From Balanoglossus misakiensis (lineage: Eukaryota > Animalia > Hemichordata), in contig CM082587.2 of the NCBI GenBank assembly GCA_040954595.2, positions 1,703,000-1,766,999 on the forward strand: a DNA stretch of 64,000 nt, in the 5' to 3' direction. The notes beneath the pieces were generated by a model. That model saw nothing but the letters and a program-made list of their open reading frames with translations, searched no databases and had not been told where the DNA came from. The position numbers were made by a program, and so were the translations under genes. Positions 10,602 to 64,000 of this stretch are shown here, piece after piece; within the stretch, counting starts at the first letter, position 1; each line of letters opens with the position of its first letter.

Positions 10602-10635
10602 AGCTTTAGCGTGAAGTGTCATTTCTATAACAAAC

Positions 10636-20000: not shown

Positions 20001-20031
20001 TTCTCATTTTGTTTCTTTCAGACCTGTAAAT

Positions 20032-26247: not shown

Positions 26248-26364
26248 GTTGTACAGGATAAAATTAAAGGCTGAAATCGCCGATATCCCATAATTTCAAT
26301 TTCGCTTAGTTTCTCCACGATCACTTCACTATAACCATTTCGGGAGTCTGCCGCATTACCAATA

Positions 26365-29301: not shown

Positions 29302-29385
29302 GTCTCCGTGGCGCAACGGATAGCGCGTCGGACTTCTAGTTGATCAGGCATTCGGAGGCTGTGGGTTCGAATCCCACCGGAGACG
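29302..29385 (+). tRNA. tRNA-Arg(UCU) with 11-nt intron
   Basis: GTCTCCGTGGCGCAACGGATAGCGCGTCGGACTTCTA[GTTGATCAGGC]ATTCGGAGGCTGTGGGTTCGAATCCCACCGGAGACG followed by a T-run terminator. Confidence 0.95.
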
Positions 29386-30899
29386 TATTTTTTGTTAAAG
29401 TGACAGCGCAGCTATGTCATCTGCTGCATATGCTAATAGAAATTTATGAGGGATTGTTTCAAATTCATGGAAAAATATAGTTAGATCTAAACAAGTGTTT
29501 TTGAGTATGTTTTTGCGCGGACTTGGTTGCTACGTGTGGTTTGGTAGGTCCGGGTTCGAATCCCTTAAAAGTTAAGGGGATCTACCTGAATTTTAAAATT
29601 ATTTTGATACCTGCGACTGTCCTGAAGCACCTCCGGGTTAAGTACGGCCATCCGGCATCTAGCGCCCACTTGTAATTTGACGGCAACACGACGTTTTGGC
29701 CAAATGTGCGATAATGCGTACTAAGAATCGACTGATAACACATACAACTTTGGTATTTGCTTGGTATGAGCTAGTAAAGCAAATAAAGTGACGAGGCAAA
29801 AGTTTCTGTTTTGTTTATTTATTTATTCAATTATTCTTTCATTCCGAAATTAGATTGATTGTATAATCTGTAGATAAATATCAAAATACATTAATTCGTC
29901 TTTGTAAAACTGTCAACAATGAGAATAAAAAGCAAAAAACTAAAGTTGCACCCTGCCCGATCAACATAGCGGGAGAAAAAACAAATAACTGAAACGATTT
30001 AGCAGAATGCCAGTGTCATAATGTACTTTATGTATGCAAGTACCACAAGAAACCTGTCACATGAAAAGTGATCCGGCCCTGACTACTATTTCAGTACAAT
30101 ATTACTTTGGACAGTTAACTATTTGAGTCAAGTAGAAGGAAGAAAATGGTTTCGTATTTATGAGTTCCTGAATAAAGAAGTTGCGAACATTTTTCTAACA
30201 TCAAATAATATTATTGCCACGATACGTCGTCGAGTGACCGTAATGTAAATAGGTTTCATGTTGACAGTAATGACGTGGTTGGTTTGCGTTCCTAATACAA
30301 TGTAGACTTGCATTTCGCTGGATACGAACTTGGGACCTTCCACCAGGTTGCCATGGCAGTCAATCGTATGCAAATGCATAATGTGCGCGTGACATCACAT
30401 CACAAAGCATTTTCTCGGAAAGAAGAAAAACAACATATTCTTGGTTAAGAAAAGTATTCCAAATAAATAATAGCTGAATAAAATGTTCTGTATTTATTAA
30501 GTTCTGTAAAAAATAATTTAGGGATTTATTTGGCATATTGTAACTGCGTGTTATTTTTGCGAATAGACTTGATGATTCTGCCCGTATTTAATTATGGAGG
30601 CATAAACTGTCTTTCAACCTCATTTGATTTGTGAAATGTCAGAGAATGTTCTGGAGTCCCTGGCTCCATCAAGTACAATCAGTGAAATGCGAAGGGAAGA
30701 CGTGTGACGAATTTTGGCATAAGTCTGCATACTATATACATGTATTCGGGTGGCGAGATTCAGCTTGGGTCTCTTCGAACGCGGAGTGAAGTCACATTAA
30801 GAAACAAGATGACGCGATTCTGTAACCCCACATGACGCTAACCCAATTAACACAAATGTCTTTCAACTTTCAGGTTGTTCGCAGGTTATCTCCTGTGCC

Positions 30900-41147
<10,248 letters not shown>

Positions 41148-41717
41148 GATTTCGGCGAGTTAAATATTTATGAAATAGTCCCGGAATTGCTTTTGAACTT
41201 GCTACAGTCGGGTGTTTGGAGGTATCCCCTTGACAACGGTCGATTCCAACAAAAGTGTTTCTGTACAATCGGCCGGCAAGAAGAATGGTAGTGTTCCGTT
41301 CGGTTGCCAAAAGTTCAACCTGCGATGAAATTTTAAAGGCATATATTTAATGATATCCTCACGTGTTTCCCTCGACCAATCACTGCTCATTTTGTTGACT
41401 CCCCCGGTTGTGGTGGATCCAAAATGCGGCTATAAGAACAATGATAAAGTAATTTCACTATTCCACTTAGTAGCCCCCCGATTATTGGTCAGCAGTTGGC
41501 CAATCGTACGTCCTTAATGAAGTCGGCCATGTTTGGAGATGTCTTCGTAGTCAAACTGTAAATAACTAACGAAAGTAGCTGATAGAAATTATGTTGAACA
41601 TTTTTTTCAACATGAGGAGTACATAATGTATTTTTATACTACGTTTGTATTGTTATTATTGTTGTTGTTGTGGTGGTTGTTACGATTAATAGGCATTAAG
41701 TAAAAATGCAGTAATAA

Positions 41718-41780
41718 CATACATACACACGTATACACATACATACATATACATACACACATACATACATATACATACAC
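41718..41780. repeat. (CATA/CA)n microsatellite
   Basis: catacatacacacgtatacacatacatacatatacatacacacatacatacat... Confidence 0.75.
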
Positions 41781-44700
41781 ATTCCACATGTTCACAGTTA
41801 TCAAACCATGGACTTTTTACGTCCATGATCAAACCAATCTTAAAATTGATATTTTACCTTCAAATGTTGCTCGCTGTTTAGGCTTGTAAAATACAGGAAG
41901 ACGACGCCGCACATAAATTCCTTCCCCAACGTTATCTCGGCTGTTTTACGGACATTAGTGTTCCTTACTTAACAACATAGCAGTATCCTCATTGCAGCTG
42001 TGGTGTTTAACCAGAGAGTAGAACTGAGTGAACTCGAGAGTACGAACGTAGGCAGCAAAAGGAATGTTTCGGACACCGGGTTTCGGCAACAACGGCACAG
42101 ACGGGAAACAAACAGGGAATTCCCAATTTCGACGGAATTGTTGGAAAGGCGGTGCACTTTGCTCTCTGTATAGAAATGCGTTGTTTTGCTACGTAGCATA
42201 ATAGTCGCTTTGGTAATTATCGTGCGATATGGGCATATGCGGATTACAAAAAAACGTGACCCGGACTTCAACACGGATGCGGCCCCCTAACTTTATTGAA
42301 TTGAATAGGCATGGTTTCTTCGAAGGCCTTGTACTTGCTGCTATGTTTACGCAAGTTCCGGGTAGAGCAATACCGTCTATGGTTAGCACACAGACATCCT
42401 GGTACACTTGAACAGTCTTCGCCCACGGCCCTTCGGCCACAGTTCATGAGTCTTGCCATCGTGTGTCGTGTCGAACCGTGTCGTGTTATGATGTACGCAA
42501 ATAACCATAATCTGATCCGCTTGGGCCGGCCTGTACACACTGCACTTTCTGCTATCATGATTCATATTTGCCATGCATTCCTTTCACAATGTTATTATTA
42601 TCCGGAACATGTGCCCAGTTTTATGATAAAATCCTATTTTAGATGTTAGGCCACTGACAAAAATAATAATACTTCTATTTTCAAACAGTGAGCATAGAGG
42701 GAAAATAGGGTTTGTGCCTCATACATTGACCAGAGCTGATCTGTTTTATGAGGAAAAGCACAGAGCAAAGAAAGTTGCAAGGTAGTAGATGACATTCTTG
42801 TGCCATCGTATCCTTGACAATGTCGGCAGTGAGTGATTTACGAGTCTCAAGTAGTACTCCGATAAACTCACCATGACAACCTACAACACCTAATCGTGAC
42901 CAAGCAAAGTCAATAACTTAAAATTAAGCTTATCTTAGATTATTTTGATAGGCTTCTAATGGCAACATGGGATAAAAATATCCCGAGTGATATTCAGCAA
43001 ACTGTAAAATCATAGGGTTTCCCCCATCTTGTATGTAGGGTTACGCTATCACATGAAGTGGAATAGTTGCAATTCCTGGGATGACGAATAAATGCCTGTT
43101 TCGGCTGTTCACTGTCAAGTTCATATTCAGTTAAATGCTTGAGAATCTGGGTCTTCTGGTGATTTTCTTTTTTATTTTAAAGAAACCAAAAAGTTCCAAA
43201 AATGCCAATATTGCAGACCAGCAATGGCTGTGTGAACTGTTGATTATTGTAACTATTCAAACCGAGCTTGAAAATAGTTATGAGCTCAAATATGGAAACC
43301 CGTCGTAGCCTATGGCTTCGCCTTTTCCGGTTGGCATGATTGATCTTGCGCCCTCTGCGATCGCACTAGTCTTTGAGGGTACCGATAAACGTCTATATTT
43401 ACACGTTAGGTCTATTCCAATTAAATCTGATCTGAGTTAATCTAGTCTGTGGCCACATGATCGAAATTATGTTATTGTTTTCAATTTTGATGTTTAAATT
43501 GAAAATACTGTATTGCATTCAAAACGTCTTAATTTTGTCATTTTTGATGCTCTCCTTAATTCGCCCTCAAATTTAACTTCCTCAAATATGCCCCGCTGTT
43601 TGTTTGTTAGTTTGATTGAAATAAATTCTGTTTTTGTATGCTAGAACAGGTGTTCAAATGTGAAAGAAGAAAATAATGGAAACAATGGTTAATATTAATA
43701 GCATGTCGTCGTGGCAACGGGAATATGCTAAATACAGTTATTGTCGTAAATGATACGGGTGACTCAAAGCATGTGGAGAGCAGACGACATTCCATCGTTT
43801 CTTTGGCAGTGAATGCGATCAACTATAAATTCTTGAGTAGCGGATTGCTATACATAAATTCTATTTGCTTGTTCGCTCATATTCTAATCTACTGAGTACT
43901 ATGAAAACTGTAACCATGGCAAAATGACGAGGCAGATTGAAGTTCTGCAAAAAAGTGAAAATGATGTGCGAGATGTTTTAAGTAGTGAAGTTTTGAGGTC
44001 ACACCTATTCACACTTTTACCACCCAGCATTTAGTGTTTTATTGCCCTTTTTATTGCCTGCAAGTATTTGAAGTGTTGTTTTGCTTATAAATACACGCGG
44101 ATGCGAAATTCGGGACAAGGATATGCCAGCAACACACCGTAACCCACTTCAAAGAACTGGCCTCGTATTTCGCGCAAGTGACCCGATTTGACGGGTCACC
44201 AGGTGGACCCGGACGCGCATTGATACACTTCACGGATATATGTGTGGGCGCATGTAAAGCTAGGATTCGTGGACAGTTCGTGGCGTTTCTAATTAGTTTT
44301 TCTATTCATCCTAAGAAGTTGAGATTTCACACTTTTGACATCAACATTTCCAAAACCAAAGTTTATATAAAGGAAGACGTAGTCAGTCTTGTGAACTCCA
44401 CAAGTTTGACAAATTGTAATGAATGACGTCAATCAGTCAGTTAGTCAGTCTGTCTGCCTGTTTGACTCTGTCTGTCTACCTGCCTGCCTGCCTGTCAGGT
44501 TATTTTGTACTTTGTATCTTTCAAACGTATTGTGCACGGCGAATGGGTGTTAGAGGTCGAGTGTGACCCCTGTTTCCTGCAGCCGCGACGATTTGATTAA
44601 AACCCGGAAAGATCTTCTAGGATCCGAACAAATTAAATTGTTTATTAATAACAAAATGCATGATAGTCTACATAAATACATCCAGACAGATAATCCGGGA

Positions 44701-45526
44701 TAGTTTCTTTACCTGGGACGAACCCGGATGTGGGGCGCAAACCTTGACCCGTGACGTTCAAAATAAAATCATAAAATTGTTTCCTTATAAGTGATAGACA
44801 AAAGATATTGTGAAGATGTTCCGTTGCCATGTATCTCATCATTCAACCAAACAGGATACAGTGTTTTTCAAGGACGAGACAAAATAATGAAACAAATATA
44901 GATGAATACCTTAATATTTACGCTAAAATTCCCATACCTTCATACGTACACTCATATTTAAATATATATAAGTTCCAATCCCAGATGCGCTCGGTTATCT
45001 CCAAGTCTTTAAATTGCAATGAAATTATATAGTTTCCGATCCTGTGTTCAATTTGTTATTGCAATTTTTATTTAGGTATTAACACGTAATTTTGCCAGAA
45101 ATATACTTTTCCTGTTTCGACTCGGAGCATAACCGTTTTCTTCCCAGTTTCTCTTGTGTACTTCCATGGAAAGTCGAATGAGGTTTATATATTTTAAGTG
45201 TAGATTAAATTTAACGAGATATAGTAATCGGGCTCGAAACTAGCTTCAAATGCGCGTAAACATGGTATATGCAATAAGGGATGTATCAGCACTTTTGCAT
45301 GTACACGCCTGGTCGGTAATAGGGATGGTACTGAGGAGGGAATTCCCATCAGATTCCCCAGACCTACTCACAAACAGCGCGCACAATTTATTATGTCCAC
45401 CATTGGCAGATCCTGTCTTTGTCTGGTGGTAATGATCTCGTTACGTGGCAGTGTTAAGGTATACAAGTATTTTATCAGCACTCATGGATGTAGTTTATTA
45501 TTTGAACAGGATGACCCTTTGTATCA

Positions 45527-45947
45527 TGTCTGTCTTGTCTTGTAATCTTGCATTATCGGCTACATTGGTGTGTAGAGTCAGGGCCACAGAGCTGAGGTAG
45601 AGTCGAAGAACAGCAACGAAAACACCAGTGTAAAGCTTTAGAGTCAGACGACTTTATTGCAAAAACAGGCCAGCACTTCGGCCGTTCAATAGTTCTTCCA
45701 GAAGCGATGCATGTTATGTATTGGGACCGGCACTGGTCATTGTTGCATGTATCTTCCGTGACGCGTGAGGGGGGCACTGTTGGCAGGTTTGTTGACGTCT
45801 CTAGGGACACACCAGTCGTGTTAGGCTTTCTTCCTCGGCTGACTGGTTCAGGATCCTGCAACTTGAATGAATGAACAGAATCGAGCGATGGGCGGGGATT
45901 GGAAGTACACCTATGCCCAAAACAATGATCAATTATCGTCTGTGACA
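45527..45947 (-). mobile_element. Possible solo LTR
   Basis: About 420 bp bounded by TGTC...GACA, GC-richer than its flanks, with minus-strand AATAAA near 45653. No TSD found. Confidence 0.3.
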
Positions 45948-46483
45948 TGCGACCCGGATCAGTGTCTCCCCGACCACTGTTATCCAGGCACTGTGCCCGG
46001 ATGCAAAAGCGGATACCGTATTGTAGGCATATGCCTGATCTAGTTTCTTTCTGAATACCACGGGGTGGGACAATTTTGCCGCCCTAGGGCCATGTTTAAT
46101 AATAAATGTGACAAGGTTGGTCCATGAAAGTTGAAGGAAGTTTACCAGGGAACTCGATATGTATATTAAAATAAAATCCTCGTTTGATCGTGAATGCAAT
46201 GAAATTTGGACTTTTTGATTGAGGATGTCTCGCATCATATTAACTGGCCAGAGTTAGGTTTCAACAGAAACTAGTAACAAGTTTCAAAGGCTACTATACG
46301 AAGCAACACACAAGTTAAACTTTAAACCGGATTTCTTTTATCTCTACTGGTCTAGTAGGCAATAACGCAATAACTTAGGGCGTCACGCATCTGTCAATCA
46401 CTCCCCCCCCCCCTTCCACGGAACATGATGCGAACGGCACTTTTTCGCCCCTTAAATTCCCCTTGACAGAAATACTTCAGCAC

Positions 46484-46607
46484 GGTCACGTGACCAGAAA
46501 AGGTGCTTTAAAATCAGCGGGTTTTGTTCTGTAGGCAGCATTTGGCGATTGCCACACGACAAGTGTCATCTTCAGCCGCCATCAAGAATCTTCCCAAGTT
46601 TCACCAG
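46484..46607 (+). promoter_or_regulatory. Putative PKS promoter and non-coding first exon with a palindromic E-box
   Basis: GGTCACGTGACC at 46484-46495, TATA-like TTTAAAA at about 46507, donor CAG|GTAGGC at 46607, acceptor AACAG at 48612 upstream of the ATG. Confidence 0.5.
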
Positions 46608-48269
46608 GTAGGCATTTCTTCAATTGTTTACGTATACTTAACATTGACAACTTGTCATTTTGATTTCTTTGAAATATGTATTTGCACTTGATCACGATCG
46701 CTTTTTACTATCAGGAACATGTGTACTCGGATTACCTTGTTTACATATAAAATCTAAACATCAATTTTTAAAGTGCCTGGTAGCCAAATTGACAAAAGAA
46801 AAGTCAACTTTTAAGTGTTAAGTCTCCCCAATGTTCCATAATTTTCTCATAATTTGACTGAACACTTGAATGATTCTGTGAAGAGGTGTGTGTATCCAAG
46901 TATTCGGCTTTAATATCCGAGTATTCGCGGAAATTACGAATTTTGGATTTCTATATTTTCATGCACGCTTGCTCAGTATGTAATCGAGAATTTAAGAATC
47001 ATCAGAACGGCGCTGTTTTCGCGATGAGTCGATCAAATTCTTCAATACCTAGGCAATCGGAAATTAAAAGTTGTAAACTGTAAGCAAAGATGTTAGACAG
47101 GTACGGTGACGCAGACCACAATATGCGCTCGGACGAGTAGCGGATCATGGGCCCGAATGTCGCGCTACGCCCAGCTATCTTTAGGCGTTGTTTCGAATCA
47201 AGTTTCCAACTTTTTTAACAGAAAAAAAATGCTTCCGAGGATATAACAATTAGTATTGAACATGCAAAGCAACTTTTAATAGCAGAAAATCCTTTGAGTC
47301 TGTGTGTGCAAAGCTTTGAGAGGAAGTTTATCGTTGACGTAAGGTCTCAGTAGAAAGATCTGCAACAACAAGTGTTGGATAGTCCGTTCTGGTGCTGACT
47401 TGCCATCCGTTGTTTTTAAAATTAACTATTTGTCATGCGATTCGATTACACATATTGAACCAATAAATTACCTTCTTGTTTATTTGTTGTCAGTTATCAA
47501 AATGCATTGTTTGCGTGCCATGCCAAAAAAATGTGTTGTCTCCAAACTGACCACTTGTTGGATCAGAGAAGTACACAGGAAATCCTAGCTTGCTTGTCAA
47601 CAAGACAGCCTTGAGAAACACCGAGAATTTGGCCATCCTCCCTGCAAATGCTTCCGCGGTCGACTTCTTGTGACTGTTGTCCATGACCTAACCGTTGATC
47701 CCGGAACTGGTTGCGAAAGTCCGTGTTATATTGTTCAAGCTGTCTCGTTCGCCCACACAATACACCATTATCTCAAACATTGACAATGCACATTATGCAC
47801 TTACTGTGTATGGAATCGTTCATAGTACGCTCTTTGACATTGTTCTGTTTGACAAAGCCTATGGCTCGGCAAATGTTTTTTATATTCTTTTCACTGAACA
47901 GTGAAATTCCACATTGAAAACCTCAGGAAAGAAATAAAAATCACATCTGTGTACTTAATTATTTGAGGAGACAACGTTTTCAGACGCCAGTATATTACCA
48001 TATTGTTACATGGTTCCATAGTATCTTGAGCAGTTTGTACAGTGTACACATTAATTTATAGCCGCTTGACATAAGTTTTAATATTTATGTATTTCAGACG
48101 AAATCGAGTTCTTTCGTTCCTGCAGATAGTATTTACATTTCAAATCCACAATGCCGTCTAGCGAGGACAGAGAGAAATGGTCGTCTGCCAAACGACTGAA
48201 ACAGGTATTACACTTTTTTGTATTGACGGACATGATTAAGGTCGTATGCACCCGGAAAACCAAAGTATT

Positions 48270-48560
48270 TAATTTTTTTCTCATTTTTTGCTCAATGCAA
48301 CTTTGGATCGTTCTCTCTTAAATTGAGAATAAAACTTGGGGGTCACCATGAAAAATTTGGAATGACACAGCAAAATTGGTTCAAATTGGCTCAAATTTAA
48401 AATTCAAAATGGCCGCCAGTCTTTGTGTTACATGTACGTCTATGGAGGAAATGTAAATTGGCGATTTTCAAGATATGCATTATTCAATATTCTTAGAACC
48501 ACAGCATCGTATTTTTACACTCATATCGAAATAGTTCAACAGTCACCATTCATTTCCTTA
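48270..48560. mobile_element. Fragment of the same MITE-like repeat family as 9982-10480
   Basis: TTCAAAATGGCCGCC at 48403-48417 is the reverse complement of the repeat unit at 10262-10346. Boundaries approximate. Confidence 0.4.
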
Positions 48561-48648
48561 TATTCAGAAGAGGCATAGTTTGAATAAAGGCGTGTTTTTT
48601 TTTCATCAACAGGACACCACTGGTGTCGTGACAGGGGAAAACAACAGG

Positions 48649-51600
48649 ATGTGCCCACCTTCAGGGCAAAGCGAAGCATATGGGTTTCCCATTGCAATCA
48701 CAGGGATAGGTAGGTGATTTGATATGTAAATAAATCGAGTTAACATATAATGGTATGGGTTATATTCGTATGCTATAAATAAGATACTTGTAAGCTAATA
48801 TTTGACCAAACAATTAAATGATTGAATTACCCACTTGTTATGCATGGCTATGTACAGAGAGTGAGCTTAAGGAAATAAATAATCTATCAAAAAATGGGCG
48901 ACTTTGATGTTTAAATGATTATGCAAAGTGTTAACATTCAAGATGATATTTCACAACTTCACCACCAGAATATTAATTTTTCCATGCATAGGTTGTCGAA
49001 TGCCTGGTGGGGTGAATACACAAGAAGGCTTCTGGGAAGTCATCAGTGAAGGCCGAGATACAGTGACAGAAATTCCCCAGGAAAGGTGGAACATCAACGA
49101 ATTCTACGACAGCGATCAGTCTAAATCAGGCAAGATGGTGACTAGAAGGGCAGGGTTCGTTGATGGTGTAGACCAGTTCGATCATGGCTTCTTCAAGATT
49201 TCACCAAGAGAGGCAGCATCCATGGACCCCCAGCAGAGACTGCTGCTTGAGGTGGTAGAAGAAGCCTTTGAAGACGCGGGAATCGATTCAGACAAACTGA
49301 AGACCGACTGCGGGGTGTTTGTAGGAATTGGTATGATGGACTATGGTATGGCCAACATCGATGCCTATAGCATGAACCCATACACTATAACCGGCAACGC
49401 CCACAGCGTAGCTGCCAATCGCATATCCTATGCTTTCAACCTGCAAGGCCCAAGCTATGCTGTTGATACAGCTTGTGCTGCATCAATGACAGCAATGCAT
49501 CTTGCCTGCACACATCTCTGGAACAAGGAATGCAAGGTTGCAGTTGTCAGTGGCTGCAACAGTCTACTCATTCCAGAGGTAACCATCGGGTTCAGTGCTC
49601 TCGGAGTGCTATCCCCAGAGGGTCGATGCTGTCCTTTCTCCGACGAGGCAAAGGGCTACGTCAGAAGTGAGGGCTGGGGCACTCTCATCTTGAAGCCACT
49701 TTCAAAGGCTGTAGCTGATGGTGATCACATCTACTCAGTCATCCGAGGAAGCGCGATCGCTGCTAATGGGTTCTGTGGAAGCCTGACCATGCCTCTGCAG
49801 GCTGCCCAAGAGTATGTCATGAATGAAGCCTATGACCGATTTGACCTGTCGATGTCCTCTGTTGACTATGTCGAAGCCCATGGCACTGGTACCCCTGTTG
49901 GCGATCCTATCGAAGCCCGTGCAATTGGTAATGCCTTTGCCCCATACAGAAAAGATCCTCTGAAAATCGGGTCTGGTAAGAGCAATTTTGCACACAATGA
50001 ATGCGCAGCTGGTATTACTGCAACAATCAAGGCATCTCTTATGCTGTCCAAGCGCACGCTCTGTCCCACAATCAACTACAAGAGACCGAATCCATCAATT
50101 GATCTGGAAGGGTTGAAGCTGGAAGTGCAAACATCAAAGGAGCCTTTCTTGCCGAACAAAAGCTATCGCATTGGCGTCAACAGCTTTGGTTTCGCTGGAG
50201 CAGTTGCCCACCTTGTCCTTGATGAACCACCGGTGACTGAAAACGAACCAAATCGTGTCTGCGGATGGCAGTTTGGCAGTGAACAGGAGGGTGAAGAAGT
50301 AATGCTTCCCTTGTCAGCAAAAACGAAAGAAGCGGTTGATGACTTGGCAAAGAAATGGCTGTCATTTAAAAACACCGATGATGCTCTGGGAGTGATCGGC
50401 TGGCAAGCCACGAGAAGAAAGCACCATGAGTTCAGAATGTGCATCACAGCCAAATCAGGGAAGGAGTTCCAGCACAACTTGGAGACCTATCTGGATGGGG
50501 CATCAGTCGATTCAATCGTGACAGGTTCGACATCTGGCAAACAGCCAAAAGTGTGCATTGTCTTCCCCGGCCAGGGACAGCAGTGGGCAGCCATGGGAAA
50601 GAAGCTGTATGCTACTGAAGAAGTATTCCGCGAAGCTATCAACCAGTGTGATGCTGTGTTCAAGAAACTCAGTGGGTGGTCTCTCCTCCATGATGCCGGT
50701 CTGTTCAATGGCCTGAAAGAACCATCCACCACAGCAAACCTTCCTGTCAATTCTGAAAACCTGGTAGATGAAATGGAAGTGTCCCAGCCTATCATTCTGT
50801 TTTTCCAGATTGGACTGTTCCATTTACTGAAGCACTGGGGAATCGCCCCTGCTGCTGTAGTTGGACACAGTCTTGGTGAGGTTGCTGCTGCTTATGCATG
50901 TGGTGGGATGACCATGACTGAAGCAGTGACTGCTATCTATGTGAGGAGCACACAGCAAGCAACTTTGAAAGGTGCTGGAGGAATGGCTGCTCTACGCAAG
51001 TCCACCGAAGAAGCAGAAAAGTTATGTGCAGAACATAACAACCTGTTCATTGCAGCTGTCAATGCACCTGGATCAGTCACAATTGCTGGCGACACGAAAG
51101 TGATCGAAGATATTGCTGCAAACAACCCACAACAAGCAAAGCAACTTCGAGTTCAATGTGCCTTCCACACATCGTACATGGACCCAATTGAGAAGACCTT
51201 CCTGCAAGCTATGGATGGTGTTGTGAAAACAACCAAAAGACGTGACAGCATTCCATTCTATTCCACTATAGATGGCAAACAATACAACGGTACATTCGAT
51301 GGGTCCTACTGGTGGAAGAATGTCAGAAACACAGTTGCCTTCAGTGATGCTGTGACCACTATGCTCACTGACATTGAACCTGATATCATCATAGAATGCG
51401 GAGCTTCTGCAACCCTGATGTCATCCGTCAATAAAATCAACCAGGAGGCTGGATTGTCAAAGATCATGACTGTAGCACTCGGACAGCGAGGCAAGGATGA
51501 CCGCCATGCACTGCTGAGGTCAGTTGGTTCTTTGTATGCTGCAGGTGTTCCCATTGACTGGAACAACATGACGTGCAACACTCTCAAATGGGCTCCCATC

Positions 51601-54600
51601 CCAACATACGCATGGCAACATCACACTCACTGGACTGAACCCGAAGACAGGATGAAACGTCGTCTTGGATTGGAGGACAAGAGCTTCAAGGGGCAAAATG
51701 GCAACATGTCAATCGACATGTTTCCATTTTTAGCTGACCATGTTGTCGAGAATAAAGTGGTATTTCCTGGCGCTGGCTACATAGAGTACTGCGTGGAGAT
51801 GTTCTTTGGGGAAACAGAAACACCAGCACTGAAAAATATGCGGTTCCTCCGTGCTTTGATTTGGCCACAAGATGAACGAACTGGTGGACCATCCAGAGAA
51901 AATGTCCCAGTTCAAGTCTCAAAAGAAGGCGCGTCGCTTCAAATAACATCAGGAGAAACCCAACACTACACAGCAGAGATGGACACTCCAGTAACCACTG
52001 ACGAGATTTTCCAGTGCCTTCAACTCCCCAAGATAAAGCAGAGATGTGAAACTTTGATGTCAGGTGTCGAACTGTATCAAAAGCTTGCATCCATTGGTTT
52101 GAATTACGGCCCCACCTTCCAGGTGATTCAGCAAATGATGCTAGGAGATGGAGAGGCAGTTGCAGTGATGGTGAACCCTTCTGACACCAAACAGAGAGTG
52201 CAGACAACACTGCTGGATGGATGCTTTCAACTGGTGATTGCATCACTGGGTAAATTCACAACAGCTTACCTGCCTGTAAAACTGGGTATGATGCAGATGA
52301 CTGTTCCAAAAGTGCCGTTTGGAGAGCAGCTGATCGCATATGCAAAAGTGACAGATTGTGACAGCACGTCAATCACTGGTGATGCATATCTATGCAGCAG
52401 CAATGGACAGGTTCTGGTGAAAGTTGCTGGATTGGTGGCCCAGAGTTTACAAGACAGCAGTTCTGCAGTTGACTTAGAGTCCTGCCTGTACTCAACAGAA
52501 TTACAGCCCGTGAAGTCATGCCTCCCTACTACAGACGATGTGTCGTGTTTATTTGAAGAGGACAGCCTGCGAAAGCTTTTCCCAGAAGACATGGACATAG
52601 TCACAAGAACAGAAGCAGTAATGCCACAAATAAAGACCATCTGCAAGTCTTACATCAAACATGCCCTTGATACTGTTGAAGATGATGATGTAGGGGGAAG
52701 AAATGTCCGATACATTAGAAGATTGAGAGCCATTGCTGGTGATGCCACTGTTGAAACATTGGCCAGAGAAGACATTCCTGTAAAGATGGAAGAAGTAGCT
52801 GCCATTGTTCCAGAAATGTCCCAAGAATTGAAAATGGTCAAGACGCTTGGTGACGCCTTGCCAGACACACTCAAAGATCCTGACATCGGCGTGTCACTAC
52901 TGTTTGCCCCAGACAGTCTTGCGCTGTACTTTGCTGATGCACCGACGATTCGCCTGTTCTATGAAGCTGGCGCTGAGGCTGTAGCAAGAGCTGTAAGAAA
53001 GTCAATGGAAAAGAAGAAAGTGGTGAGAATTCTTGAAGTTGGTGGAAGAATGGGCGGCCTCTCAAAGTACATCCTCAGAAATTTGAAAGAAGAAGTGGCA
53101 AACAAACAAGTCGAGTATGTCTTCACAGACCTGAGTGCATCATTCTTCTCACACGCCCAACAGTGCCTCGAAGAGTTTCCACTGGTCAAATACAAGCAGC
53201 TCGACATCGAGAAAGACATCGAACCTCAGGGATTCATTCCTGGAAGTGTTGACATCGTGGTGTGTCTTGATACCCTCCACTCTGCAGTTGATGTCAACAA
53301 CGGCATGTACCACATGCGCAACCTTCTTTGCGAAGACGGCTGGCTGTTCATGTATGAGGCAACCAATTCCAACTACATGACTGAGTTAGTCTTTGGTTCT
53401 CTTCAACTCTGCTGGGTCTATGAAGACTTCAGACAGGAATCATGCTGGCTGCCACGTAAAGGTTGGGAGGACCTTTTCAGAGAGAATGGTTACAGCGATA
53501 TAGTCAGTGTATCCTCTCCAAATGAACTTCTCCACAGCATAATGGTCGGTCGCAAAACAGGAGACCTCCCAGACCCGAAGGAGCAAAGCAATCTCACAGA
53601 AGATCAATTGTTCTTGCTTGGCTGTAATGATGAAATGGTCCAGAAGGTGATAAGTGAATCTTTGGAGAAGCCTTGCTCTACAGTCATGACCCCTACAATA
53701 GATGACATCAAGTCTTTCACCACCAACAAACCATCGAATGTTATCTACTGGTGTGGAACGTGGGATGCAAAACTCCATTTCCTCCTCAACTTGTTGAAAG
53801 AAATGGATACACATGAAGATAATATCAGATCTGTTTACATCATCACACAAGGGGCCTACAAACAGCAAGGAAATATTTGGTCTCATGCTGCTTTTGGTCT
53901 CGCAGGATCCGCCTGTAACCACATCGCCTCAGGACGTCTGTACTATGTCGACCTAGATTCTCAAGTGTCCATGCAACAAAACGTACAGATGCTGTGCAAC
54001 ATAATGCGCAATGCAAACCAACCAGAGAGAGCTCTTGTGATCGAAGGAAATGAAATTCTCTGTCCGAGAATCACCAATGCTGCCAAACCCGAAGTTTCTA
54101 CTCAGAATGTCAAGCATTGGCGCCTTGAACAAAACATTCGCCACGATGGAAAGGGTGCATCACTGGACGACTTGGGATTCTGCGGGTTATCTGATTTGAC
54201 TCTCAAACCCGGTAAAGTGATCGTCAGGGTCCATGCTGCAGCGCTGAACTTCAAGGACGTCATGATGGCCCATGGAATGTTGGAAGGATTAGAAGTTGAT
54301 GAGACACGTTACCGTTTTGGCCTGGAGTGCTCCGGAGTGGTTGAAGCCGTCGGTGAAGGTGTCACTCATGTGAAAGCTGGAGACGAAGTCATCGCATTTA
54401 CAAAGACCAGTTTCGCTTCCCATGTCGTCAGTGATGGTCGTTTCGTGATGCCTAAACCCAAACACATCAACATGGTCGATAGTGCTGGCATCACAGTCGC
54501 TTTCACCACAGCCTATCACAGTTTGGTCGAGAGGGCAAACCTGAGAAAGGGAGAAACAGTGTTGATCCACTCTGCCTGTGGTGGTGTTGGTTTAGCTGCC

Positions 54601-56331
54601 ATCCAAATTGCAAAGATGCAAGGAGCAACAATCTTCTGTTCAGCAGGAACCGAAGAAAAGCGTGCCTATCTCAGAAATGAGTTGGGCATTGAATATGTCA
54701 CAGATTCCAGATCAGATCAGTTTTACCACGACGTCATGAAGTGGACAAATGGTAAAGGTGTCAATGTCGTACTTAATTCTCTGTACGGCAGACTGATGGA
54801 AAGGGGGTTGGCTTCACTGGCTCCTGGAGGAAGATTTTGTGAAATCGGGAAGAGAGACATACTGGAAAATTCCCAGATGGACCTGAAGACCTTCCTGGAA
54901 AACAAGTCTTTCCTCTCCTGTCAGATCGACATCAGACTACGACAAGATCGTGAAGGCATGCAGTACTCGCTGGAACAGGTTGTCAGACTTTTTGAAGAAG
55001 GGAAACTGACTCCAATGCCAGTGACGGTGTATCAGATTGGTGACTACCTGGAAGCTTTCCGGATGATGTCGAAGGGCCAGCACATTGGAAAAGTAGTTTT
55101 TGAAATTCCAACCTCCTACGTTCCAGAAAGATTCGATCTACACGGTGACATCTTCCATGAACAGGCAACATACCTTGTAACCGGTGCATTCGGTGGGGTT
55201 GGTCAGGCGCTGGTCCGATGGATGCAAAAGATGGGAGCCAAACATCTTGTCATGGTGTCAAGAAGTGGTGGAAAGTCAGCTGCCGCACGGCGTACTCTGG
55301 AGTTCCTGAATCGTAAAGGTGTTGCAGTCCACACTTTTGCTGCCGATGTATCTGATTACAACACTGTGAAGAATATCCTTGACCAACTGAAATCCAGAGC
55401 TGATGTCCCACCACTGAAGGGTGTCTTCCATCTTGCTGGTGTAGTGGATGAAACTCTCCTGCCAGACTTGAAACCAGACCAACTTGACCTTGTGATGCAG
55501 TCAAAGGCTGTGAGTGCGTATCACTTGCACGATCTGACGAAAGAAGAAAGCTTGGATGTGTTCTTCATGATGTCTTCCGTGTCAACACTGAGGGGCCAGT
55601 CGGCTCAACCAGCATACTGTGCAGCTAATTCGGTACTGGACGCCCTTGCAGAACACAGGCACAGTCTGGGCCTACCAGCACTATCACTGCAGATGGGAGC
55701 TGTCAGAGGGGCAGGGTACCTCGAGGGCAAAGCAGAAACCACAAAAGTTCTGGAAAGCCAGGGATTTGGCACACTTCACATCAATGAAATCATGGAGATG
55801 CTTGGGAGTCTTTTGAATGGTTACAACAAGCCTGTTGTTTGCCTGGCCAATCAGGTGAGAAATTGTTATCATCATACTTAAGTAATATGTAACTCAGTTG
55901 TTGGAACCTTTATGTTTCTCTTTGAAGGCTATGCATGGTCTGATTACCGTGTTGTTGTTTTTTGCTCACCGTACTAGGACTGGGCCACAGCAGCCAAATT
56001 CACACACAAGACTAACCTGAAATTCCACCACCTGATGGACGACTCTAGTTTGAACAAGGGGGAATGCCAACTGTCGCTGGAAGACCTGGAGAATTTGGTC
56101 AAACAGAAACTGGGTCAGATGATCTGTCAATCACCAGACGACATTGATATCACCAAGCCAATGATCGACTATGGCGTCGACTCACTCATGGCGGTGGAGA
56201 TGGTCACGTGGGCATCGAAAGAGCTTGATGTCGTCATCTCACAACTGGACATTCTGGGTGGCATCAGTACATCCGTGTTGTTGGAGAAGGCTGTTGAGAA
56301 CACCGTTGTCCTTCCCTTGATGGAAAACTAA
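48649..56331 (+). CDS. Iterative type I polyketide synthase KS-AT-DH-MT-ER-KR-ACP, no thioesterase, 2425 aa (echinoderm Pks1-like architecture)
   Basis: Exons 48649-48709, 48992-55854, 55978-56331 (7278 nt). KS: DTACAAS, EAHGTGT, KSNFAHNE. AT: GQGQQW, GHSLG, AFH. DH: HVVENKVVFPG, DGCFQ. MT: LEVGGRMGG. ER: IHSACGGVG. KR: TGAFGGVG, YCAAN. ACP: GVDSL. Confidence 0.96.
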
Positions 56332-58854
56332 ATGAAAACCAAAACATATGAATGAATGTACTGCCAAAACCAACTGCTTGAAGTTTACATAATGAATATA
56401 TATCAGTATCATATTACAAGCGCTAAACGAGGTCACAGCTTGTTAAATCATTCTCGTTCGTGAAAACCATTATTAGTTTTATATCTTTATAAGTTCGTCT
56501 TCTGTATATATTGCATCAAAAATATTACTTTAACACTATCCCGTATATGTAGTTGGATCAGTTCGTGTAGTTTAAACGTTTTTTGATAACTTGTAGTGAA
56601 CTTTGATTGCCTTTTGGTGTTTTTCAATATTCTGTTATTATTCAAGTCAGACAAGAAGCAGTCACATTTCTATATACATGTATATATCATCACCTAAAAT
56701 ATCTTAAAATTTGTCATTTAACAGTGTTAGGTGCTTTCTCCTCGACTACTGAGATTGCAGTCAATAATTTTTTCCATGTGTAAAATTGACACATATATGA
56801 AATTTTATACCACAAGTACCCTCTGCACTTTAGTACTGAGATTGAGCCACCAACAATATGGCCTGTACATCCCAAACAAATTATCCCAGCATGCCTTTCG
56901 CACATACTGAAGTCACATTGCGTTAATTATAAAGACTGAAGGAATCCTTTTATTCACTGTTAGTGGTTAATATATCTATAGCTATTTCCTCATATAACAT
57001 TTCTTTAAACAACAAATGTATTCATTCATAATGAATTGAGTGTATGTAATGGTTTCATTACAGGTATCTCGTAGTACTTTAGACATGTTGTATCTAAGCG
57101 TTATTATAAGAGTTTTATTATTCAGTTATGTTTCTACGTGTATATCTTTTGGCGAACAATCACTAAAATATATAGAGATCCCCTTTTAGACCACACACAA
57201 GCTAGTAGGATATTCTGGAGGTACAGGGACTTCAATCGGGTTTATACCATTTTAACTTGTTGGCTTTTATTAGTGAATAAAAATCTAGAGTCTCTAACAC
57301 TTTTGATGGACGTCGTTTTTGTCTAAGGAGGTATCGCCAAGCTGGAGTGATTTGTGAGTAAAAATGATAGCTGTTCATGTCAGTATGGCCTGCAGTTTGG
57401 CCTATCCTGAATCCTGTTCCCAGCCCCGCAATTGAAGCGACCGACTTTCAAAGTAGACTGTAACAAAAACATCTATGATGTCAATCAACACAACCTGTAT
57501 CCGGGTCTCAACCGGGTCACCTATTGTAGGTATACTCAAAGACATTCCTGCAGACAAAGACTATAGTTTGACAATACATAGTTTCAGCATGGACGTTGGT
57601 CATTTTGGAAGCCGCAGTGTCTAGAGCATGTGTGTATGTATGGTGTGTGTTCGTCAGTCTGTGAATACGTGAGTAAGGTTTGCAGACGCCATTCAGTGGA
57701 TATTCCGACTCTGCCTGCGTTAGTTTCTGTACACGTGGACCAGTCAGTCAAATGGTCGCGTTTACGTACGATTGTTCGCGGCGCCGAAGTGACAGGCGAA
57801 GTTTGCAAACCCGGATACTTTACCTGCATGAGCCGAATAATATCCTGTTCAGGTGCGATAATCCGGGGCGCTGAGTCAAAAGTCGTCATTTTTCAAGCGA
57901 CTTCATAACATGGGGTCTTGACCTTGTCATTATAAATCATCGAATAACTTGTTGACGACTTTATGTATAGACTGTAAGTTGGAGGAGGGGGTCTACGATT
58001 TCTGTTTGCCTTCTGAGTTCTGTGACACAATGCAACGGTTCTGTAAACAACCCCTCCACATTAATCCGAAAATAAATAACAGAGATCCAATTTCGTAAAT
58101 GCACAGAAAATATTTATTCTCCTCAAAAATATAGGGTCTCAAAATGCAAGGCATAAAAGTAATATTATATTATAAATACAGAAATTCTCAGTAGTCTCAT
58201 CATTTTTTGGGAAATCAGATTCGTAAATATTAACAGTTTCCTGAAATCCGGCAAGACATTATATCTATGGACTAGATATAATCTATCTATGGATAGATTG
58301 AGCGCTAAAAGTTTTAAAATAACAAATGATTTAACATTTCTGCGTCAACACTTATAAGAAGCTTACATGTTTTTTTTTCTCTCAGAAAAAAAGTAAAATA
58401 ACTTTTGTTGGCATACTTCCATACTTGTTACAAGAATAGAGTGACGGTCACTGTATTAGGCTACTATGGTTTCAAAAAAAATTCAATATGTTCTCACGAA
58501 TATAAATTTATTCGACTATTGGCTACCACAATCCCATCATACTATCTAATAAAAATATGTACAAAATACATAAAATCTTTCTCGAGATACAAGAACTACT
58601 TCCTTGTACAACAAATCAAGCATTTTTGGCAGTCTTAAGTACACATGACGACTTTCTGTGGTAAAAGTTCTTTCTTATTCAGAGTGAGGACGATTTATAT
58701 TTACATCTAAGAATAGCTGCGCCGGCGCACTGTGCCAGTGGCGATTCAACTTTTTGAATGGGATAATCCAGTACTGCGCATGAGCATATTGTGCTGAAAG
58801 TTCGCTTCTGATTCAGGATTTCTGATCGCTGTCACCTGTCTCGCCAGATCGTCT

Positions 58855-61310
58855 TTAGTGAGAGTGCGGGTTTGAGAAAATGGCAAAACTGAGCAGCAGA
58901 GGAAGGATAATCACAATCAACAGTTTCAGCAAAAAGGAGAGTGAGATTCCCTTGTTGGATTTGACCGCCGACTTCGGCATCACCGTCTGGGTTGGATACA
59001 GCATGTTCTCCGGCGCTTTCATGATGGCTTCCCTAGCTTTATCCCACGATGCACCTGGTCCGACAAGACGATAGGAAGCTGGATAGCACGGGCCGAACAC
59101 CAATCGGAAGGCCAGTTTGGGGTCAGAGGGGAGAATTTTCCAAAATTGGGGTCTGACGCCGATCTGATCTGCCAGCTCCTCTTGATAGGGTACTGGTGGA
59201 AACTGCAAGGGAAGAAATCAAAAAGTCTTTATCTACCTAGCTGTCCTACATACAACAAAAGGTAGGCCTAAATACACTTCTTCATATTCTCTGAACCAGC
59301 TGCATAAAACCAGCAACTTCGAGTTTACCAGGTTTCTTTCTCTATTTTTTTCATATGTACATATACTTACGAAAATTCTGTGTCTTCCAAATCTTTTGTA
59401 CAGCGTGTCCTTTCTTGTCTTGACATCTTCCAACATGGTTTCCTGATCCGGTAACTCTGCAGCACCTGTGAACACTCTCGTCACCCACCTGGCCTGGAGT
59501 TCGAAGACCGGCCCCTGCGCTCCAACTGTGGCAACCCCTCCGACGAGAGCCAAGGTGTTCTTCTGAAGTCGTGGTGGGAAGACGTGAAAATACAACTCCA
59601 GATCTGCAAAGTTGTCTGCGGAGAGACATAATAATTATGATTATTAAAGGCCATTCTCAAGATTTGTAGCCACATAAATATACATCAGGTGAAATGCTCA
59701 TATAATTTTAATGCGCTATAATTGTTACAAACCAAATTCTTTTCCTTTGGGTTTGAGAAGCACCATGTAATTTAGATGTTTTTTTTTTTTTTACTTGTAA
59801 AATGCTCGGTGTATTTGTCGTTCGTTTTCGTCAACATACCTGCAAGAATGGAATCGTCAATGAAGGTAAAATCTACGTTGTATCCTGTTGCAAACATCAC
59901 GACATCGAGGTCGTTGATCTCTGAGCCGTCTACAAACTTGACACCGTTTGGAGTGAAGCGTTGTATCTCCGGCTTGCACTTGAGCGAGCCGCAGAAGATG
60001 CGGTTGTGAATGTCGTCGTTGACCATGACCGAGCCGCTGAACATGCGACGGGTTGACTTCAGACCCAGTTTTTCGTGATCCACCTTCGACTGGACAATGC
60101 GTTCGACGACGAACTGGCGGAGACCGTCGGGAATGACGTGATTGAATCGTTTGTTGGCTATTTGGTCCGCCGCCATAGCAGCGGGACCCATTCGCTGTAC
60201 AACCCACGTTCCATTCCGCATGCTGATATAAACCATTTTGGCATGGCGGCTAGTGTCAGTGGCGCAGTCACCGGCCGAATGAGAGTCCCCTGTTAAAATA
60301 GAACAGAACATGCAGGACAATGTTATATGTTAGATATTGGGTTTCAGAAGCATCGGGCGCTCTAAAAGCTCAGTTATCAAACGAAGAGAAACCACAGGAA
60401 TTGAAAATAATGTGAAGAGCTTAAAATGATTATTTCTTTTAGCTAGTAGTTAAGAAAAAAAATACTTTATGGAGGATTCACTCACCGACGACAAGCACGG
60501 TTTTCCCTTTGTAGTCGCGTCCTCTCCGGAATTCGTTGCTATGCATTATGATTCCTTGGAACTTGTCAAGTCCCTCGCATTTTGGATATAACGGCGATGT
60601 GTACAACCCGGTACAAACCATCACTGCGTCGAATGTCTCCGTTCTGTCAGGTTTTCCTTTCTCCCGGATGTGGATCACCCATCTTCCTGTCCTACTGAAG
60701 TCTCCGGCTTGCTCAACTTTCGCCACTTCGGCGTTGAGTGTGATGTACTTGTGAAGTCCAAAATGGTCCGCATAATCTTGGTAATACTTGAGGACCATAT
60801 TTGGCGTCAGATACGGTGGATAGTCCTTGGTGAATGGAAAATCGCTGAAATACATCATTTCTTTGCTGGAGTTGGTCACCAGGCATTCGTAGAGGGCGCC
60901 GCCTTCATCTTTATTGGGGGTGTCGCTGTAGTTCCACACACCCGCTGCAGAGGAAGGAAACTAACATGACAAACTTTTCCGAAGAAAAAGACGCAAGTCG
61001 TTAAGTATCTCACAGGGTATGACTGTGATATATTTGGGGTGCTCGGGCGGCACATGCAAGTGTAGTTGTACTGAGAGATTACACACTTCCGAGAAAATAT
61101 TGTCCTCAGGATGCCCGCGCGTTTGAAACAGTCTCGATAAACTTTTCAATTGCAGTATATCTGTTCTTGGATAATGAAATATAAGTGACACTTACCAGGA
61201 CGGTCTGACTTCTCAAAACATACTGGGGTCAACCCTTCCTCCAAACAACTTTTGATTGAAACCAAACCGCTGATTCCAGCGCCGATTATAGCAACTCGTT
61301 TGGATGACAT
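58855..61310 (-). CDS. Flavin-containing monooxygenase (class B FMO) with C-terminal membrane anchor
   Basis: Exons 61310-61196, 60944-60486, 60289-59840, 59615-59371, 59202-58855. FAD motif GAGISG, TNSSKEM, FMO fingerprint [38 protein letters not shown], hydrophobic C-terminal tail. Confidence 0.95.
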
Positions 61311-61530
61311 CGTAGAGTTTTCTACAGAGCAAAACGTGAAAACACGAAAAAGATTGAGAATTTGCAAAGCAAAAAAATGTGTGGCCTCATTCGCCTATGT
61401 TACTATTCACTTGTGAGTACGCACTGATAGGCAGTCCCTGCATATACATGTATTTAGCTTATGGAGTGCCTCGGGCAATTAGCGCCTACGCACACACAGT
61501 CTTTGAGGTCATAAGGGACTCTGGTAAAAC

Positions 61531-61605
61531 CGAGAGAGACACAGAGAGACAGAAGCAGGGAGAGTCAGAGACAGACAGGGTGAGAGACAGGAGAAATGAG
61601 AGAGA
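61531..61605. repeat. GA-rich simple repeat
   Basis: gagagagacacagagagacagaagcagggagagtcagagacagacagggtgagagacaggagaaatgagagagac, within the likely FMO 5'UTR intron. Confidence 0.5.
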
Positions 61606-62733
61606 CCTACCTTTACAAACTTGTGCAACTTGAAGAGAAAAACTTTTCTGCGGGCCGCAACTTCAGTTTACCCGGACTTATCGCTGACTGGCTGTACTTT
61701 ACACATCGCGGCCAATTTTATTGGCGCAAGCGAAACCGCACCGCGCATGTGCAACTCGCCAGTCCAGGGTTTTTCCCGGTACTTGACCGGTAATTTATTT
61801 TCTAGAACGCGACGACTCCGTATCTTGGCGTAAACCAAATACCTTGTGGCCCCTTTATTGTTTTACGCATACGACAAGGAGGAAACAAATAATGCTTGGC
61901 CGTGACGAAATCCGGGTCATTCAGGATCTGATACGGCGCAATATCCCGGATCCGTCTGACAAAACTTCGTGCATCCGGTGTGCAGTGTGGACTGTGTCCA
62001 GTCTGTACACGTTGCAATGCACGTAATCACCTGGGTGGTTATTTTATTGTGCAAATTTCTTATTAAGGTATTTACATTAATGCCTCCGGACGTGTGTGTG
62101 TGTATCTATATATCTCTGTATCTATGTATGTATCAGCGTATGTATTTACCCATGAGTGTGTGTACATTATAAGCCCTACAATATACATTGAAGTTCTTCA
62201 TTGAACGACTGGAAAAAAAACTTTGAAATCTTTAACCATGATAATCACGACTTACCGGCGATGTTCAATACAACATTTTGTGCAATTATTTTTATTAAGG
62301 AAGTGATTTAAGTTCTGACTGGTAGGATATTGCCGTGATTTTCCTCTGAAATGTTTACAAGAATTTTTCCTGCTTCGGCCAATCTGTAAGACTACCCGCT
62401 CGTCCTCTGCTGATATCACAGGAATATAGAGGGCGTATGTATACAGTTACAAACGTATGGAAATGGACTCCTTAGCCAGATATTGGATTGCTGATTTTAA
62501 AAATATATAGGGAAATCCCCGTCTCATCAACGCTTAACTGGTGATGTCATAGCCCCGGGGTCACATAGTTCATACTGGTGGTTGTTATCACAGTTGGCGT
62601 TCATTCATACACTGATAGCCACCGCAACGGTCCAAAGAGCAAGTTTCCGCCGACTGGGCATTAAACAAACCACGCGCAACGCACAGTCACTTTATTTTTT
62701 AACGGGTTCATCTCAAGGCAAGGCGTCCGCGGA

Positions 62734-64000
62734 ATGGCAACCAAACGACTCGGTGAGGTTTTCGGCAAACAGGCTCTCAGCAGCCACTTACACTGCGACT
62801 ATGTCGCTGACGTGCGCTGCGTCTCCGTCGATGGAAATACAGACTGGGCTGAGTTGGAGAAGGAAAACCCCTGGCTGGGAAGCGAAGTGAGTAGCCTTGT
62901 TTTCTAACAATTCATTCAGCTGTGTATTTGTGGAAATTTTGACATTTTTCTTTTGCTCTTGTATATCTTCAGGTTGGTTTTACAGATAAATTCACAGTCA
63001 GACAAATAAGTTAATACATACATACAATGCACATGCACACATTCAGTAGTATGATAGACTGATCCGGGTCAGGCCTGGTTCCGGATGTTAAAACCCAAAC
63101 CAACAAAATCAGTGCCAGGATATAAAGGTCACATAGTGTCACGAAAGTAGCCTATTGGAATTACTGCTCATTTATACAAGGAATCTTGATTGACATACAG
63201 AGTGGAAATTTATTTTAATAACTTCGACAGAAGCATTTCCCGTGTCATTTTTTTTAGAATCTGGTTGTGAAACCGGATCAACTCATCAAGAGACGAAGCA
63301 AACATGGACTGGTTCATCTCAACAAAGACTTGAAATCCGTCAAAGAATGGATAGCCGACTACCAAAGCAAGGAAATCGAGGTCAGTGACAGTATGCAGTT
63401 TTACTTGTACTTTTTTAAATTACTGGAGTAGCTTTTCGTTTATGTAGAATTACATTGTGTAAATTTTGTTTTATTTTTCGGATATATTTGTCGGACACTT
63501 ATACTTATTATCCTTTCTGGAATGTTTAATCAATGTGGTTTAACTCGTATGAAAGTAAAATGCCTAATTAAACTAATGTTCTTGTGCAGGTGGACGGGGT
63601 CAAGGGTCGCGTACAAAAGTTCATAGTCGAACCGTATGTTCCGCACGACCAGAAAGATGAGTACTACGCCTGCGTGTACTCCACCAGAGAAAATGACGTC
63701 ATCATGTTCCACCACGAAGGAGGCGTGGATGTTGGAAACATTGACGAGAAGGTGAGTCAAGTGCGGTGTCTCTGAGAAGTCGACAGTTTGTGTGATTAAT
63801 ATACATGATATTAGTTTTCTAACATACTGTGCAGGAATTTTACTAAGTGACCCAGTCAGGCAAGAGCAAGCGAAAATGAATGCTCACAAGTGAGCGAATA
63901 CACCCCGAAGAGAAGTCCAATGAATATATGGACTGACATGGCCCCAGCTTATTGGCTGACCCGATTTTGTTTCAGGCGAATAAATTAGCTGTCAGCATAG
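62734..64000 (+). CDS. ACLY: ATP-citrate lyase, N-terminal part (continues beyond the window)
   Basis: Exons 62734-62886, 63258-63380, 63590-63751, 63976->64000. MATKRLGE..DWAELEKENPWL..NLVVKPDQLIKRRSKHGLV..EPYVPH..FHHEGGVDVG matches the ACLY ATP-grasp N-terminus. Confidence 0.92.

Follow-up and report, generated by a model that had tools for sequence, protein, structure and literature searches.

We analyzed a stretch of 64,000 nt from the hemichordate Balanoglossus misakiensis (contig CM082587.2, positions 1,703,000 to 1,766,999; hereafter the window, numbered from its first letter). It holds, within 33 kb, four adjacent and non-homologous genes of pathway type: an ABCC4-like exporter, an iterative type I polyketide synthase (PKS), a flavin-containing monooxygenase (FMO), and an ACLY-like gene. 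They are arranged as two divergent pairs meeting tail to tail. The non-coding DNA of this cluster is enriched in the word CCCGGA. We give an even chance to the reading that groups of this word are binding sites of a class-IV-like ETS factor, an orthologue of SPDEF/Ets4, that would co-activate what is likely a biosynthetic cluster. That the sites bind an ETS factor of any class is somewhat better than an even bet, and that they are functional is highly probable. Animal biosynthetic gene clusters are rare, and a limited literature search, outside which most subscription papers fall, returned no earlier description of the motif or of the cluster. As regulatory elements, grouped ETS sites are ordinary and of a known kind. 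The novelty lies in their occurrence throughout a linked animal pathway cluster with a GCM-driven counterpart in sea urchins, together with a conserved ACLY paralogue devoid of the lyase domain.

A word count on both strands gave 26 occurrences of CCCGGA/TCCGGG across the window. The non-coding DNA of the cluster has 18 of them in 13,438 nt (around 1.3 per kb), i.e., about seven times the 2.5-3.0 expected. Our control was the exon-masked non-coding DNA of 14,000-31,269, which has a similar GC content and a CpG observed/expected ratio (CpG o/e) of 0.97, against 0.91 in the cluster. It contains 2 occurrences in 12,674 nt (p = 3e-4). The exon masks of the ABCC gene and of the genes to the left were drawn by hand and are approximate. 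An earlier note on the window, made from the letters alone, had seen no site in the non-coding DNA of 8.3-22.5 kb, and there is indeed none in its 12,182 nt. That region is partly depleted in CpG (CpG o/e of 0.76; 0.43 in 1-14 kb), hence our choice of another control.

The same note had proposed a check by k-mer enrichment. We ranked 2,080 hexamers in six Markov tests, using self and external backgrounds of orders 1 to 3. CCCGGA came first with the self backgrounds of order 1 (Bonferroni 5e-9) and order 2 (8e-6), and first or second with the three external ones (5e-7 to 7e-7). The enrichment is thus significant after correction in five of the six tests (5e-9 to 8e-6), the exception being the self background of order 3, where the word ranks second and is not significant (Bonferroni 0.17). 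The latter background absorbs the motif itself. None of 100 dinucleotide shuffles attained 18 occurrences (mean 2.0 +/- 1.3). A scan statistic correcting for the post hoc choice of the region gave p = 0.008, and pairs of sites at most 120 bp apart are more frequent than expected (6 vs 2.4, p = 0.018).

All 18 sites listed in the earlier note exist, the 11 left-hand ones at the very base given and the other seven within 1-3 bp (corrected positions in Table 1). The note had counted at least 11 between the ATGs of the ABCC4-like gene and the PKS; all 11 are real, but 10 lie between the ATGs, since the one at 48251, placed upstream of the PKS, is in its first intron, 100 bp past the ATG at 48151. 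It was right that ATCCGGGTCA is identical at 61910 and 63062. It had overlooked three sites in ABCC4-like introns (37455, 37510, and 40393), two at 29549 and 29632, and one in an FMO exon (60663). The coding sequence of the PKS has no motif site, vs 1.5 expected.

The information in the flanks of the 18 sites is confined to the bases adjoining the core. With the sites read as ACCCGGAT, the base before the core is A in 12 of 18 and the one after it is T in 10, and both strands are used (12 vs 6). A de novo search by expectation maximization converged on the same motif from all five seeds (three GCM-oriented, two ETS-oriented); it mixes strands and carries no information on the family of the factor. 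We also compared the window with contigs of three sequencing runs (X1, X2, and X3), which come from one sample, possibly the source of the window itself. None of the 40 differences listed, out of 1,074, falls in a motif site, in a comparison that mixes paralogues and is uninformative on how well the sites are kept between haplotypes.

The GGA(A/T) core is the signature of ETS factors (PMC2905244) and is present in 15 of the 18 sites. To score the sites, we used nine measured matrices from PMC2905244 (human) and PMC4362205 (fly). When all CCCGGA words were removed, the human SPDEF matrix had 18 matches in the cluster, against 7.2 +/- 2.7 in shuffles (none of 200 reaching this number) and 5 in the control. 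These residual matches are driven by CAGGAT-type variants, which ETS matrices tolerate: CAGGAT occurs 14 times vs 5.0 and CAGGAA 14 times vs 6.0. Outside the core word, the ratio of GGA(A/T) to GGA(C/G) is 36:4 in the cluster and 16:14 in the control (p = 8e-4). Hence, the assignment to the ETS family is supported by tests that are independent of the word that defines the sites.

Among the nine matrices, that of human SPDEF performed best (8 matches vs 0.7, and 32 vs 7.5; 0 of 60 shuffles). The CCCGGA core attains the maximum score under this matrix and under the secondary one of its fly orthologue Ets98B. SPDEF prefers T at +4, and 10 of the 18 sites have it (p = 0.008); the tolerance pattern of the sites is C(C/A)GGA(T>A), with C(C/A)GGAT occurring 29 times in the cluster and 6 in the control. 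The sites thus resemble those of SPDEF/Ets98B/Ets4 (PMC2905244; PMC4362205) in their maximal core score, in the T at +4, and in the tolerance of A at -1 and of C at +4, and some of them continue in a way that may correspond to the conserved secondary mode (CCCGGAT-YA). Unlike SPDEF sites, they have no preference at +5, and they are stricter about C at -3 than the human primary matrix. They also differ from the fly secondary site in having A, not T, at -4, and none attains 80% of the maximum of the fly matrices.

Several observations weigh against this assignment or against its regulatory meaning. The self background of order 3 gave no significance, and the control came from 12.7 kb elsewhere in the window rather than from the genome. 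Three of the 18 sites read GGAC, although we dropped an early argument that this excludes ETS factors, as the human SPDEF matrix has 11% of C at +4. The base following GGAT is flat (A7 C8 G7 T7, n = 29) and deviates from the human matrix (p = 0.011); the purine at +5 and the pyrimidine at +6 that mark the human primary site are not preferred here, and on their 3' side the 18 sites bear no significant likeness to SPDEF (p = 0.13). With the primary matrix of fly Ets98B there is no excess (1 vs 0.7), the sharp fly matrices have no match at 80% of their maximum, and the Ets98B secondary-site matrix (GTCCCGGATCAT) has 4 weak matches vs 0.1 at 60% and none at 80%. Moreover, C at -3 prevails in CCGGAT words (10 C, 2 A), whereas the human matrix has A and C in equal parts, and it is found in just 2 of 14 CAGGAT words (p = 0.008), so that one simple matrix fails to describe all sites. 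Finally, the related pks1/fmo battery of sea urchins is driven by GCM (PMC7455242). The mismatch to the human flank is softened in two ways: the fly and human orthologues are reported to differ there and to have the secondary site GTCCCGGATCAT in common (PMC4362205), and in 8 of the 10 CCCGGAT sites the next bases are RY or YA, as in the two modes published for SPDEF/Ets98B (p = 0.012, post hoc). Since the 3' flank is flat and unlike that of the human matrix, we regard the sites as likely class-IV-like ETS sites, without assigning them to SPDEF itself.

A factor outside the ETS family with a CCCGGA core, e.g., a lineage-specific zinc-finger protein, perhaps joined by a reader of GGGTCA(C), is an unlikely competitor. 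The strictness of the hexamer fits it, as the one-base neighbours of the core occur 0-6 times against 18 for CCCGGA itself, and so does the lack of information beyond +4. GGGTCAC and CGGGTCA each occur 8 times in the non-coding DNA of the cluster (1.0 and 0.9 in shuffles) and never in the control; they are partly independent of the core word, with five of the eight CGGGTCA outside it, and they resemble a nuclear-receptor half-site. Such a factor leaves unexplained the excess of CAGGAT and CAGGAA and the bias to GGA(A/T) outside the core word. The earlier note had concluded that one factor co-regulates the cluster. This is still an inference, and the second enriched word, GGGTCAC, hints at more than one input. 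We also observed GTAGCC 10 times (2.7 in shuffles) in the non-coding DNA of 41148-64000 and not in the control, with significance after correction in only one of the six Markov tests.

It is rather improbable that the sites reflect the local history of the sequence (through small duplications or the mutation bias of an unmethylated domain) and have no regulatory role. The region was picked post hoc, the controls lie in the window, the self background of order 3 gave 0.17, and the cluster has roughly twice the density of CCGG as such (2.68 vs 1.42 per kb). Yet CCCGG followed by C, G, or T is not enriched (6 vs 4.9), the flanks have nothing in common outside the octamer, the sites lie in both orientations, and the scan statistic allows for the choice of region. 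None of the repeat families listed contains the sites, the direct repeats listed being the 20 largest of at least 60 families. A transposon or tandem-repeat origin was rejected for this absence from the listed repeats, and the Rfam matches were three tRNAs only.

Within the ETS family, the earlier note had named the SPDEF and ELF/ESE classes. The family is borne out and the SPDEF matrix is the best of the nine, apart from its deviating 3' flank. ELF/ESE is weakly supported at best, and we consider a class II factor of this type improbable as the binder of the sites. C at -3 is compatible with class II, the A at -5/-4 agrees with fly Eip74EF (p = 0.0015), and the ELF1 matrix without the core word has 13 matches vs 5.8 (2 of 200 shuffles). 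But just 5 of the 18 sites have GGAA, in none of these is it followed by G, and GGAA followed by a purine and T, which defines class IIa, does not describe the sites. The ELF1 and EHF matrices are more than 90% purine at +5, and the 3' flanks of the sites score -25 and -18 bits under them, no better than random. ELF/ESE fits less well than SPDEF.

The least probable of the explanations given weight, and a very improbable one, takes the octamer ATCCGGGT as a variant GCM site (ATGCGGGY with G3 replaced by C) of a diverged hemichordate GCM. It would keep the link seen in sea urchins, where GCM activates pks1 and fmo genes (PMC7455242; PMC7005274). ATCCGGGT is indeed one base off the GCM octamer, with A at position 1 in 10 of 18 sites and T at position 8 in 12 (flank p = 0.01). 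However, position 3, termed indispensable (PMC4701085), is C in 18 of 18 sites, while C makes up 1.2-1.6% in SELEX of fly gcm/gcm2, and fly and human GCM specificities are reported to be alike (PMC4362205). The 64 kb hold no canonical ATGCGGGY and 2 ATRCGGGY. The measured GCM matrices show no enrichment at 80%, and a GCM matrix altered to accept C, by exchanging G and C at position 3, yields no extra sites (7 vs 4.7, 37 of 200 shuffles). Given the measured matrices, the lack of canonical sites, and the failure of the altered matrix, we reject this reading. The STAT site, TTCCCGGAA, was rejected too, being found in none of the 18 sites.

Table 1. Genes of the cluster and motif sites in the window (positions from the first letter of the window).
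Feature	Range	Strand	Details
ABCC4/MRP4-like ABC exporter	30900..41147	-	ATG 41147; ABC_tran, ABC_membrane; best PDB match MRP4/ABCC4
Two sites in ABCC4-like intron	37455..37515	+, -	37455, 37510; from word count
CCCGGAG site, ABCC4-like intron 1	40393..40398	-	directly after a TATA-like word on the + strand
Group at ABCC4-like start	41180..42362	+, +, -	41180 (33 bp before ATG), 42260, 42357
Densest group of the divergent ABCC4-like/PKS interval	44178..44751		44208, 44603, 44694, 44723
Everted GGGTCA half-site pair	44179-44198		8-nt spacing; CGGGTCA also at 44745
Site pair	45953..46001	+	45953 (GACCCGGATCA), 45996 (CCCGGATGC)
PKS-proximal sites	47700..48256	+	47700 (451 bp before ATG), 48251 (intron 1)
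Iterative type I PKS	48151..56331	+	4 exons, 2,455 aa, KS-AT-DH-MT-ER-KR-ACP, 0 internal stops
Three sites between convergent PKS and FMO	57500..57867	-, +, -	57500, 57810, 57862
FMO	58855..61311	-	ATG 61311; 5 coding exons
Group in the divergent FMO/ACLY-like interval	61671..61979		61671, 61911, 61945; SPDEF-matrix matches at 61921, 61970
ACLY-like gene, first three exons, runs off window	62734..64000	+	ATG 62734; orthologue of 804-aa P. flava protein
Site in ACLY-like intron 1	63063..63124	-	63063; SPDEF-matrix matches also at 63080, 63115

The PKS shares 79-84% identity over residues 1-900 with four proteins of Ptychodera flava, 73-77% with two of Glandiceps talaboti, and 54-58% with the listed proteins of echinoderms, amphioxus, and coral. 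In a quick tree of 24 rows, it falls in an enteropneust clade of seven rows with support 100. By these relationships alone, the source of the window would likely be a ptychoderid acorn worm. In run X3 (listed as 'DNA?'), contigs pass over the last intron of PKS and three of FMO, with GT-AG at the ends of the skipped stretches; X1 and X2 show nothing of the kind. Hence, both genes are transcribed and spliced in one sample; the evidence covers PKS and FMO alone and carries no information on cell type or tissue. Contigs of the same sample are 85-90% alike at 48992-55855 and 59098-59618, pointing to further PKS and FMO paralogues in the genome; P. flava has four PKS proteins on one chromosome. A short high-copy element, of very high depth and with many loose ends, lies in PKS intron 1 (48382-48430). 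The sites between PKS and FMO fall between likely poly(A) signals, AATAAA at 57276 (+, PKS) and 58113 (-, FMO).

In the ABCC4-like gene, a PDZ-like domain (E = 2e-4) follows the nucleotide-binding domain in the last two modelled exons (30900-31470, -), which suggests an ABCC4-PDZ fusion if the exons join as modelled. Within its intron 1, the opposite strand (+) at 40376-40700 combines a TATA-like word with a motif site, GC-rich sequence, and a GT resembling a splice donor, and could be a nested first exon. No Pfam family matches the two open frames at 40272-40822.

Further left, the window holds three similar tRNA genes (22521-22608, 26164-26247, and 29302-29385) with an apparent intron in the anticodon loop, which resemble Arg-TCT genes. 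One of them adjoins a reverse-transcriptase frame (RVT_1) of a non-LTR (long terminal repeat) retrotransposon at 26310-28526 (+), interrupted by one stop (28152). At 23638-25706 (+), a TIR-domain exon precedes a B-box/coiled-coil frame, and the two are perhaps one innate-immunity gene. The non-coding DNA of 1-14000, around TPR and ZIP-transporter genes, has a CpG o/e of 0.43 vs 0.91-0.97 further right, presumably as expected from mosaic gene-body methylation.

We then asked how PKS, FMO, and ACLY-like genes are placed in other ambulacrarians, judging linkage by proxy from accession order and scaffold length. P. flava has the three on one 41.0-Mb scaffold (PKS XP_070582137-139, ACLY-like XP_070582143/144, FMO XP_070582145/147/148). 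The sea urchin Diadema setosum has them on one of 37.7 Mb (ACLY-like XP_072176880, FMO XP_072176883, pks1 XP_072176746). In both species, ACLY-like adjoins FMO by accession order. Pks1 and an FMO match are on a common scaffold in four urchins (Strongylocentrotus purpuratus, Lytechinus variegatus, L. pictus, and D. setosum), and PKS and FMO on one of 626 kb in the crinoid Anneissia japonica. Two sea stars weigh on the other side: among the proteins looked up, FMO of Asterias amurensis (22.4-Mb scaffold) is on another scaffold than PKS (24.4 and 18.1 Mb), and so is ACLY-like of Acanthaster (0.88 Mb; PKS 3.75 Mb). We infer from these data that the linkage of PKS, FMO, and the ACLY-like gene is conserved in other ambulacrarians, which independently supports the idea of a cluster.

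The cluster resembles the pigment-cell battery of sea urchins, in which pks1, fmo, and sult are under GCM (PMC7455242; PMC7005274), in that it has a related PKS and an FMO; the PKS is 44% identical to Lytechinus pks1 over 2,300 residues. It differs in that its PKS belongs to a separate enteropneust clade, ETS-type sites replace canonical GCM sites, and the genes are immediate neighbours and include an exporter and an ACLY paralogue. Clusters of the fungal type likewise place a synthase next to a tailoring oxidase, an enzyme for the precursor, and an exporter, arranged as divergent pairs that have one recurring motif. Unlike them, the genes described here are animal genes with introns and their likely regulator is a general developmental ETS factor. 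No ETS regulator is encoded in the visible part of the window.

Identity to the P. flava protein is 71-82% for the three ACLY-like exons, and identity to a full-length relative is 39-48% over the two exons it matches. The product resembles human ACLY in its ATP-grasp, citrate-binding, and CoA-ligase domains, and the FGH phospho-histidine motif aligns. The ambulacrarian paralogues of P. flava, Diadema, and Acanthaster differ from human ACLY: they have 769-824 aa and end near human residue 823, without the citrate-synthase-like (citryl-CoA) lyase domain, and their citrate-binding domain has diverged, scoring 111-117 bits for Citrate_bind, vs 284 in the full-length relative. As the window ends after exon 3, the absence of the lyase domain is read from the P. 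flava orthologue. By orthology, the gene is thus likely a lyase-less paralogue and not a working ATP-citrate lyase. Since its orthologues lack that domain and their citrate-binding domain has diverged, its product likely acts by itself as an ATP-grasp acyl-CoA ligase with a changed substrate rather than as a supplier of acetyl-CoA from citrate.

Under the class-IV-like ETS reading, the factor would bind grouped sites of moderate affinity in both divergent intervals, in first introns, and between the convergent 3' ends, and one factor of a secretory or epidermal cell type would switch on the four genes jointly. The lyase-less ACLY paralogue would supply an acyl-CoA starter from which the PKS would build a polyketide; the FMO would then oxidise it and ABCC4 export it. 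Vertebrate SPDEF controls mucus-secreting cells. The gene spdef/Ets4 is present in echinoderms and marks the aboral ectoderm of sea urchins (PMC10396339). By analogy with both, the cell type is likely epidermal or glandular. More tentatively, PKS, FMO, and the lyase-less ACLY, the latter as a dedicated acyl-CoA ligase, may have been linked since the ancestor of acorn worms and echinoderms, and may be run here, with an ABCC4 exporter added, as a regulon of a SPDEF-class ETS factor in place of GCM; we put this forward as possible, though doubtful as a whole.

A regulatory word common to the cluster offers direct access to the cell type in which the compound is made and to further genes of the pathway. 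The lyase-less ACLY paralogue is a candidate for a missing enzyme of ambulacrarian polyketide chemistry, including that of echinochrome. If ETS-type sites have indeed replaced GCM sites, rewiring would have put one metabolic module to use in different cell types of the two sister phyla.

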